From NCBI RefSeq assembly GCF_055900595.2, contig NZ_CM148325.1: 64,000 nt of DNA; one strand, written 5' to 3'. Under the pieces are notes generated by a model. The model saw nothing but the letters and a program-made list of their open reading frames with translations. It searched no databases and had not been told where the DNA came from. Shown in pieces: positions 11,744 through 12,481 of the stretch; position 1 is the first letter of the stretch; each line of letters begins with the position of its first letter. Position numbers and translations under genes: made by a program.

Positions 11744-12481
11744 ATGTCACAGTCTACATCCGTGCTTCGTCGTAATGGATTTACTTTTAAACAGTTTTTT
11801 GTTGCTCACGATCGTTGTGCGATGAAAGTGGGAACGGATGGCATTTTGCTGGGCGCATGGGCACCGGTGGCTGGGGTAAAACGTTGCCTTGATATCGGCG
11901 CGGGTAGCGGGTTGCTGGCATTAATGCTGGCGCAGCGAACCGATGACAGCGTGATGATTGATGCCGTTGAACTGGAAAGTGAAGCTGCGACTCAGGCGCA
12001 GGAAAATATCAACCAGTCCCCGTGGGCAGAGCGGATTAATGTCTATACGGCGGATATTCAGCAGTGGATCACCCAGCAGACAGCACGCTTTGATTTAATC
12101 ATCAGTAACCCGCCTTATTATCAGCAGGGCGTTGAGTGCGCTACGCCGCAGAGGGAACAGGCACGCTATACCACTACGCTTGATCACCAATCGTTGCTGA
12201 CCTGTGCGGCGGAGTGCATTACCGAAGAGGGATTTTTCTGCGTGGTGCTGCCAGAGCAGATTGGTAATGGTTTTACTGAACTGGCATTAAGTATGGGCTG
12301 GCATTTACGTTTGCGGACGGATGTGGCGGAAAACGAAGCGCGACTGCCGCATCGGGTGCTGCTGGCATTCTCCCCGCAGGCGGGAGAATGCTTTAGCGAT
12401 CGCTTAGTCATTCGTGGGCCAGACCAGAACTATTCCGAAGCGTATACGGCGCTGACCCAGGCTTTTTATCTGTTTATGTAA
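11744..12481 (+). CDS. trmN: tRNA (adenine37-N6)-methyltransferase TrmN6 (YfiC)
   Basis: 245 aa from Met at 11744; NPPY catalytic motif (IISNPPYY); SAM-binding DIGAGSG. Confidence 0.88.

Follow-up and report, generated by a model that had tools for sequence, protein, structure and literature searches.

The coding sequences of trmN and nadB share their last 16 bp on opposite strands in the analysed window, that is, the whole stretch of 64,000 nucleotides from contig NZ_CM148325.1 (RefSeq assembly GCF_055900595.2). The comparison of this junction with the corresponding loci of related species suggests, with a probability of about 0.8, that two unrelated housekeeping genes overlap here tail to tail in an ordinary way, and that this overlap would have arisen by loss of an intergenic spacer and would be kept in position by one of the proteins that the genes encode. 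The arrangement itself is ordinary and already annotated, and the pair is on a published list, so that it matters little in its own right. What is added here is a worked example of the origin and fixation of an overlap, by spacer loss, a weak extension, a stop codon held by a Phe-Tyr pair and coinciding wobble positions, as well as a testable prediction for the end of the nadB mRNA. Strict conservation of the length of an overlap is, by itself, no proof of selection for the overlap. The features that are discussed are collected in Table 1.

Table 1. Genes, overlaps and candidate RNA features, with positions counted from the first letter of the window
Feature	Position	Strand	Size	Description	Basis
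trmN (yfiC/trmN6/trmM) CDS	11744..12481	+	245 aa	tRNA1(Val) m6A37 methyltransferase	ORF list, NF047853, RefSeq
nadB CDS	12466..14088	-	540 aa from annotated ATG	L-aspartate oxidase	ORF list, NF006567, RefSeq
Shared trmN/nadB stretch	12466..12481		16 bp		Direct reading of sequence
Candidate nadB 3'-end stem-loop	12365..12391	-	10-bp stem, 7-nt loop	Perfect inverted repeat (GCATTCTCCC / GGGAGAATGC)	
C-rich, G-poor tract, candidate rut-like	12208..12345	- (nadB-sense RNA)			Composition in 78-nt windows
Weak candidate trmN mRNA 3'-end stem	12645..12673	+	11-bp stem, 7-nt loop	GGAAAUGGGCG / CGUCUAUUUCC	
yfiM/kgtP overlap	58..61		4 bp (TTAA)	Convergent CDS pair, same window	
mltF/tadA overlap	~28047..28050		4 bp	Convergent CDS pair, same window	
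csiE/hcaT overlap	58765..58773		9 bp	Convergent CDS pair, same window	

On the + strand, the shared stretch begins at the third position of a TrmN Phe codon and goes on through the codons for Tyr-Leu-Phe-Met to the stop codon; read directly, the tail is ...ctg ttt atg TAA, the stop codon occupying 12479-12481. On the - strand, it begins at the third position of a NadB His codon and goes on through the codons for Tyr-Ile-Asn-Arg to the TAA stop codon, whose image on the + strand is the tta at 12466-12468. The two frames are in such a register that their third codon positions fall together (12466, 12469, ..., 12481). The TrmN product scores 424.7 bits against the NCBIfam profile NF047853 (cut-off 350), its residues 2-245 being aligned with positions 1-244 of the 244 positions of the profile. 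The NadB product scores 1048.8 bits against NF006567, the profile of enterobacterial NadB (cut-off 629), which reaches residue 536, and 789.6 bits against TIGR00551 (cut-off 452.75), where the match ends at residue 520; residues 1-540 are matched over the full length by the 540-residue constructs of PDB entries 1CHU and 1KNP. The two are bona fide convergent genes having 3'-end nucleotides in common, and the identities (trmN6 being the same gene as yfiC and trmN), the strands and the 16-bp overlap that the first-pass annotation had assigned are borne out by the sequence, the ORFs, the profiles and RefSeq. The identical overlap is present in the RefSeq annotation of a K-12-like strain and in that of E. 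coli Z0117EC0005, the sequence of which is 100% identical to the window over 2.6 kb around the junction. The trmN/nadB region is found in 5,425 of the 5,426 complete E. coli genomes.

The conservation scan covers one genome per species for the 80 closest TrmN loci, all from Enterobacteriaceae, with TrmN identities of 72-97%. The overlap is exactly 16 bp long in 76 of these 80 loci, which answers in the affirmative the question of conservation among Enterobacteriaceae that had been posed for this overlap in the first-pass annotation. None of these 76 loci has an earlier in-frame nadB stop codon, and in none of them (0/76) has a stop been regained in the two to three free NadB codons that precede the overlap; this may be due to chance, the free codons being few, or it may hint at weak selection for the extension. 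Departures from this geometry are of several kinds. In Escherichia sp. ESNIH1 (L034:3715-3760), 14 bp of the junction are tandemly duplicated (two copies of CTCTTTATGTAGTT), by which the overlap is down to 8 bp and most of the shared sequence is present once for trmN and once for nadB. This is a natural case of an overlap that has been partly resolved through duplication. In Enterobacter sp. kpr-6, the tail of nadB has a deletion, leaving an overlap of 12 bp. In Escherichia sp. MOD1-EC7003, nadB is a fragmented, frameshifted pseudogene, for which tblastn finds only pieces corresponding to residues 1-89, 335-394 and 474-533. In Intestinirhabdus alba, nadB is absent 3' of trmN, and the trmN tail is unchanged, including the antisense remnant that reads ...HINR-stop.

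The column-by-column variation over 78 sequences shows how such a length can stay fixed. The only variable columns in the overlap are the shared third positions and positions 12470 and 12480. The C-terminal FYLFM of TrmN is invariant in 77 of the 78 sequences, and a C-terminal FYL followed by two residues is kept in TrmN homologues with identities as low as about 40%. In the AF2 model of TrmN (mean pLDDT 91.6), the last residues are ordered (pLDDT of about 92) and the C-terminus is formed by a helix (residues 232-238) that is followed by an ordered coil, which contradicts the expectation that this tail would be a β-strand. The last four residues of NadB alternate among [Y/H][I/M][N/K][R/K], being the states that are open to trmN-synonymous changes, and the NadB codons just upstream of the overlap are, in the same 78 sequences, hypervariable at all three positions and subject to in-frame indels. 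The general NadB/FrdA/SdhA homology does not go beyond about residue 520 of NadB, which has 540 residues. An AF2 model of NadB, calculated from an alignment of 21 sequences, was discarded for the tail (mean pLDDT 54.5). Judged from these alignments, the FYLFM tail of TrmN is under strong purifying selection and the NadB extension is weakly constrained.

Both frames tolerate change because their third codon positions coincide. The nadB stop codon lies opposite the third base of the TrmN Phe codon and the first two bases of the Tyr codon, and TTY-TAY always gives TAR on the opposite strand; the stop is therefore immovable for as long as TrmN keeps its Phe-Tyr. The invariance of these two codons fully explains the conservation of the 16 bp, and the unusually strict overlap length among the closest species follows from the generation of the nadB stop by the Phe-Tyr pair. 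The geometry would then be locked, and selection on the overlap itself need not be invoked.

The origin of the overlap is suggested by the outgroups. The top 120 protein homologues listed are from Enterobacteriaceae only, and the outgroups were therefore taken from a 50%-identity representative search, which led from TrmN representatives with identities of 46-54% to the contigs that encode them. In a Yersinia-type locus (L087), trmN and nadB are convergent and separated by a 70-bp spacer, and NadB ends with ...PTILHP-stop; the spacer is 109 bp in a Biostraticola-type locus (L090; ...PTILAP-stop) and 119 bp in an Enterobacterales contig (L091; ...PTILQP-stop). These spacer-bearing outgroups have the same srmB-trmN and nadB-rpoE neighbourhood as is found in Enterobacteriaceae. 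In Hafnia, a transporter gene sits between trmN and nadB, and in Rosenbergiella and one further locus (L092), there is no nadB at the trmN site. The spacer of the Yersinia-type locus (L087:3757-3826) has a single GC-rich hairpin with an 8-bp stem and an 11-nt loop (AGGGCGCA / TGCGCCCT), which could serve both convergent genes as a terminator, and such a spacer with a single hairpin is probably the ancestral arrangement. NadB of the outgroups outside Enterobacteriaceae stops right after the conserved ...P(T/S)ILxP. In Enterobacteriaceae, the spacer and the stop codon at the outgroup position are gone, and NadB has 6-7 extra codons (SNHYINR in the window), the extension ending at the first in-frame stop, which lies inside trmN; the other two antisense frames would give an overlap of 8 bp or of more than 180 bp.

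It is envisaged that the trmN-nadB spacer and the nadB stop codon were deleted together in the ancestor of Enterobacteriaceae, that the NadB frame would then have run on to the next stop, within trmN, and that the invariant Phe-Tyr of TrmN would have held the nadB stop in place from then on. The overlap apparently arose once in Enterobacteriaceae, as far as can be judged from the sequences compared, and the simplest reading of the four outgroup loci, by parsimony, is that the spacer would have been lost rather than gained. This agrees with the textbook model of overlap origin, attributed to Fukuda 2003 and Kingsford 2007 in PMC3887535, in which a stop codon is lost and the frame runs on until it meets an in-frame stop within the neighbour; outgroups with a shorter NadB and a spacer are what is found for the trmN/nadB pair. 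The likeness extends to the opposite strands, the short 3' overlap, the lineage-specific, weakly constrained C-terminal extension, and the outgroups having an unextended protein and a spacer. There is no essential difference, and what is particular to trmN/nadB is that the stop is made by the invariant Phe-Tyr of the partner.

Overlaps of this type are common and not unusual, since the RefSeq annotation of the 64-kb window has 11 convergent CDS pairs, four of which overlap. All four pairs (yfiM/kgtP, nadB/trmN, mltF/tadA and csiE/hcaT) are in the ExcludonFinder list of 2025 (PMC12288877), in which 165 core convergent MG1655 pairs with overlapping transcripts are reported, including nadB-yfiC and csiE-hcaT; the core set comprises the pairs whose transcripts overlap in half or more of the 58 MG1655 RNA-seq sets. 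The question of interference, which the first-pass annotation had raised for this pair as for hcaT/csiE, is legitimate and already in print, both pairs being in that list (PMC12288877). Conway et al. 2014 also found that, of 370 convergent operons, 276 have overlapping 3' ends, the overlap being 286 nt on average (PMC4161252).

It could be proposed that the pair is a functional excludon, in which antisense pairing of the 3' ends or interference between polymerases couples nadB to trmN and sustains the overlap, the rise of one gene lowering the other via cleavage of the duplex by RNase III or via transcriptional interference. The nadB-yfiC pair is indeed like the convergent excludons of E. coli (PMC12288877, PMC4161252), being itself one of the 165 listed, and its transcripts overlap in at least 50% of the 58 MG1655 transcriptomes; this criterion, however, is trivially passed by any transcribed pair with overlapping CDSs, transcript overlap being unavoidable where the CDSs overlap. 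The exact geometry in 76 of the 80 closest species and the absence of any lineage with a regained earlier nadB stop are also in agreement with such coupling, but the invariant Phe-Tyr codons of TrmN suffice for the 16-bp conservation. Moreover, the sister families manage with spacers of 70-119 bp, with nadB elsewhere or with no nadB at the site, and in Intestinirhabdus alba the unchanged trmN tail is without nadB beside it. To our knowledge, there is no functional link between the pathways of NAD biosynthesis and of tRNA1(Val) m6A37 modification. A regulatory effect has been demonstrated for mscL-arfA, a neighbouring convergent pair of like kind with antisense regulation, where mscL mRNA is more than 2-fold up when arfA is absent (PMC10070815), whereas such reciprocity is unreported for nadB-trmN, and no expression data bearing on it were found in the literature. 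No evidence of regulatory coupling between nadB and trmN was found, and we consider such coupling to be an unlikely reason for the overlap; the loss of a spacer, followed by fixation through TrmN, is the preferred explanation.

The first-pass annotation had also noted that there is no room for independent terminators. This holds in that there is no intergenic space, although the transcripts can end within the CDS of the partner, where candidate stem-loops are found. No canonical terminator is present at or near the trmN-nadB junction in a consensus scan, which gives weak 5-pair stems elsewhere, and the number of stems in the terminator scan (5, as compared with 3.5 ± 1.9 in shuffles) is not above background. 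A bidirectional intrinsic terminator, being an intergenic GC-rich hairpin with A and U tracts, is not seen at the junction either: the Yersinia-type locus (L087) has a comparable single shared hairpin in its 70-bp spacer, whereas in the window the spacer is missing and there is no hairpin with an A tract and a U tract at its sides. Neither of the candidate hairpins is followed by a U tract. The fold stability of 200-nt stretches of either strand is no better than that of shuffles (z = -0.2 and -0.5), and there is no Rfam match at E ≤ 1 on either strand of 11400..14600. Since there is no intergenic terminator, the trmN and nadB mRNAs must each end within the other gene, and consequently they would be complementary over about 100-300 nt, which is also the case in most convergent operons of E. 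coli. Both genes are monocistronic according to SMRT-Cappable-seq, with K-12 transcription start sites at 2710391 (nadB) and 2712801 (yfiC) (PMC6131387 supplement). No nadB or yfiC 3' end is found in the accessible Term-seq supplements of Adams 2021, Choe 2022, and Dar and Sorek 2018, and as no mapped 3' end was found for either gene, the following description of termination is inferred.

The candidate on the nadB side is the stem-loop at 12365..12391, which is located within the trmN CDS, 75-101 nt beyond the nadB stop codon and 88 nt before the trmN stop codon. The stem has a calculated stability of -18.4 kcal/mol alone and of -21.6 kcal/mol in a 39-nt context, and because of its perfect symmetry as a palindrome, the trmN mRNA can form it as well. 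On the nadB-sense strand it is followed not by a U tract but by CAGCAGCACCC.... When its stability is compared with that of 300 synonymous recodings that preserve the TrmN peptide, the z value is -4.9 in the window, about -4.2 to -4.6 in K-12-like E. coli, about -4 to -4.6 in the Citrobacter freundii group and -3 to -4.6 in Salmonella. This hairpin is the sole outlier when the 3' part of trmN is scanned (window starts 12143-12419). The excess is found with p<0.05 in 30 of 82 sequences, these being from the Escherichia/Citrobacter/Salmonella clade and a few others, where related species are not independent samples; most loci of Enterobacter, Kosakonia and the Klebsiella oxytoca group are at background level. 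The register of the E. coli hairpin shows no compensatory covariation, and it is broken in most species. The RNAalifold consensus of 70 distinct sequences is weak (-1.1 kcal/mol), with a 6-7 bp core that persists only in the Escherichia/Citrobacter/Salmonella subset. With the weak consensus and the broken register, a family-wide conserved RNA element is not claimed at this position, and the stem-loop is retained as a candidate because covariation is absent and the related species are not independent.

Directly downstream of this hairpin on the nadB-sense strand there is a tract of about 140 nt (12208..12345) with a C content of 0.32-0.35 and a G content of 0.17, a composition that resembles that of a Rho-utilization (rut) site and by which it may act as one. 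In PMC6061677, Rho-dependent 3' ends are described as having a stable stem-loop that lacks a U tract and is closely followed by a rut site, and the sequence features of such a protective stem-loop are found in the hairpin and the C-rich tract together. The nadB candidate is like those stem-loops in being stable, in having no U tract, in occurring soon after the stop codon and in being followed by a C-rich, G-poor tract, and it is unlike them in being antisense within the CDS of another gene. It is therefore a candidate for a stem-loop that may define or protect a Rho-dependent 3' end of the nadB mRNA. The prediction is that this U-less stem-loop (read from 12391 to 12365) is most likely where the nadB mRNA ends or to which it is trimmed, Rho being loaded on the C-rich untranslated RNA just past it.

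The same palindrome could be thought of as positioning head-on collisions of the polymerases, such that both transcripts would be ended there by bidirectional termination of the collision type and not by Rho. A perfect palindrome can fold on both strands, the Yersinia-type spacer also has one hairpin that is common to both genes, and a single-molecule study (bioRxiv 10.1101/2022.10.23.513370) reports that transcription of convergent E. coli pairs is terminated at defined positions by head-on collisions in combination with a nascent stem-loop. However, the palindrome precedes the trmN stop codon by 88 nt, and termination there would truncate the trmN mRNA; both genes are weakly expressed, by which collisions should presumably be rare; and the flanking A and U tracts that are typical of bidirectional intrinsic terminators are absent. 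A collision mechanism is therefore quite improbable, and a Rho-dependent nadB end at the stem-loop is the preferred proposal.

On the trmN side, the trmN mRNA is predicted to continue into nadB, in antisense, for at least 160 nt. The stem at 12645..12673 lies inside the nadB CDS, 164-192 nt beyond the trmN stop codon, and it forms solely in the trmN-sense RNA because of its two G-U pairs. Its z values with respect to synonymous recoding of nadB are -4.7, -3.7 and -4.2 in three Escherichia. When the test window is slightly shifted, z falls to between -2.3 and -2.5, with p<0.05 in 19 of 72 species, and for this reason the stem is kept as a weak candidate. If the two candidate stems are the ends, then the complementarity of the trmN and nadB mRNAs would be about 300 nt, near the genome-wide mean. 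Such complementarity probably has little effect on the regulation of these two genes of low expression.

The overlap and the trmN-embedded hairpin could also be regarded together as an antisense module that has been selected in the Escherichia/Citrobacter/Salmonella clade. The gene nadB, of NAD biosynthesis, is repressed by NadR, and if there were such a module, derepression of nadB under NAD limitation would tune TrmN via read-through and duplex formation, and vice versa. The exact 16-bp geometry and the recoded stem-loop would then be kept for this purpose; the proposal is very improbable, and spacer loss with a stop codon held by TrmN is retained as the explanation. The proposal that the coding overlap is an artefact of annotation, either protein ending earlier or starting elsewhere, was considered since the last ~20 residues of NadB fall outside TIGR00551 (which ends at residue 520), and it is effectively refuted: no support for it was found, the stop codons are unambiguous in the sequence, NF006567 reaches NadB residue 536 and the constructs of PDB entries 1CHU and 1KNP have 540 residues, TrmN aligns to its last residue with its profile and with distant homologues (to about 40% identity), and the same ends, with no earlier nadB stop, are found in 76 of the 80 closest species, so that an earlier end of either ORF, which the first-pass annotation had named as the observation that would speak against the overlap, is not found.

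Some further features are seen in and around the window. Positions 8744..15481 are about 94-95.6% identical to typical and to K-12-like E. coli, and an identity of at least 99% is found in only 8 of 5,425 complete genomes; this low identity indicates that the window is from a divergent Escherichia lineage that has been deposited as E. coli. An IS1A-like element of 768 bp (25115..25882), 98.6-99.4% identical to annotated IS1 copies, interrupts yfhH, which encodes a MurR/RpiR-family regulator, and it is flanked by a 9-bp target duplication (25106-25114 being the same as 25883-25891). Z0117EC0005, the closest genome and otherwise 99.9-100% identical, is without this insertion in yfhH, and for this reason the window coordinates past 25114 are offset by +777 from those of Z0117EC0005. 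At the other end of trmN, the K-12 transcription start sites of yfiC (2712801, reverse) and srmB (2712764, forward) correspond to window positions ~11707 and ~11744, respectively, assuming no indels (PMC6131387 supplement), from which it follows that the 5' transcript ends of the divergent genes srmB and trmN overlap by about 38 nt.
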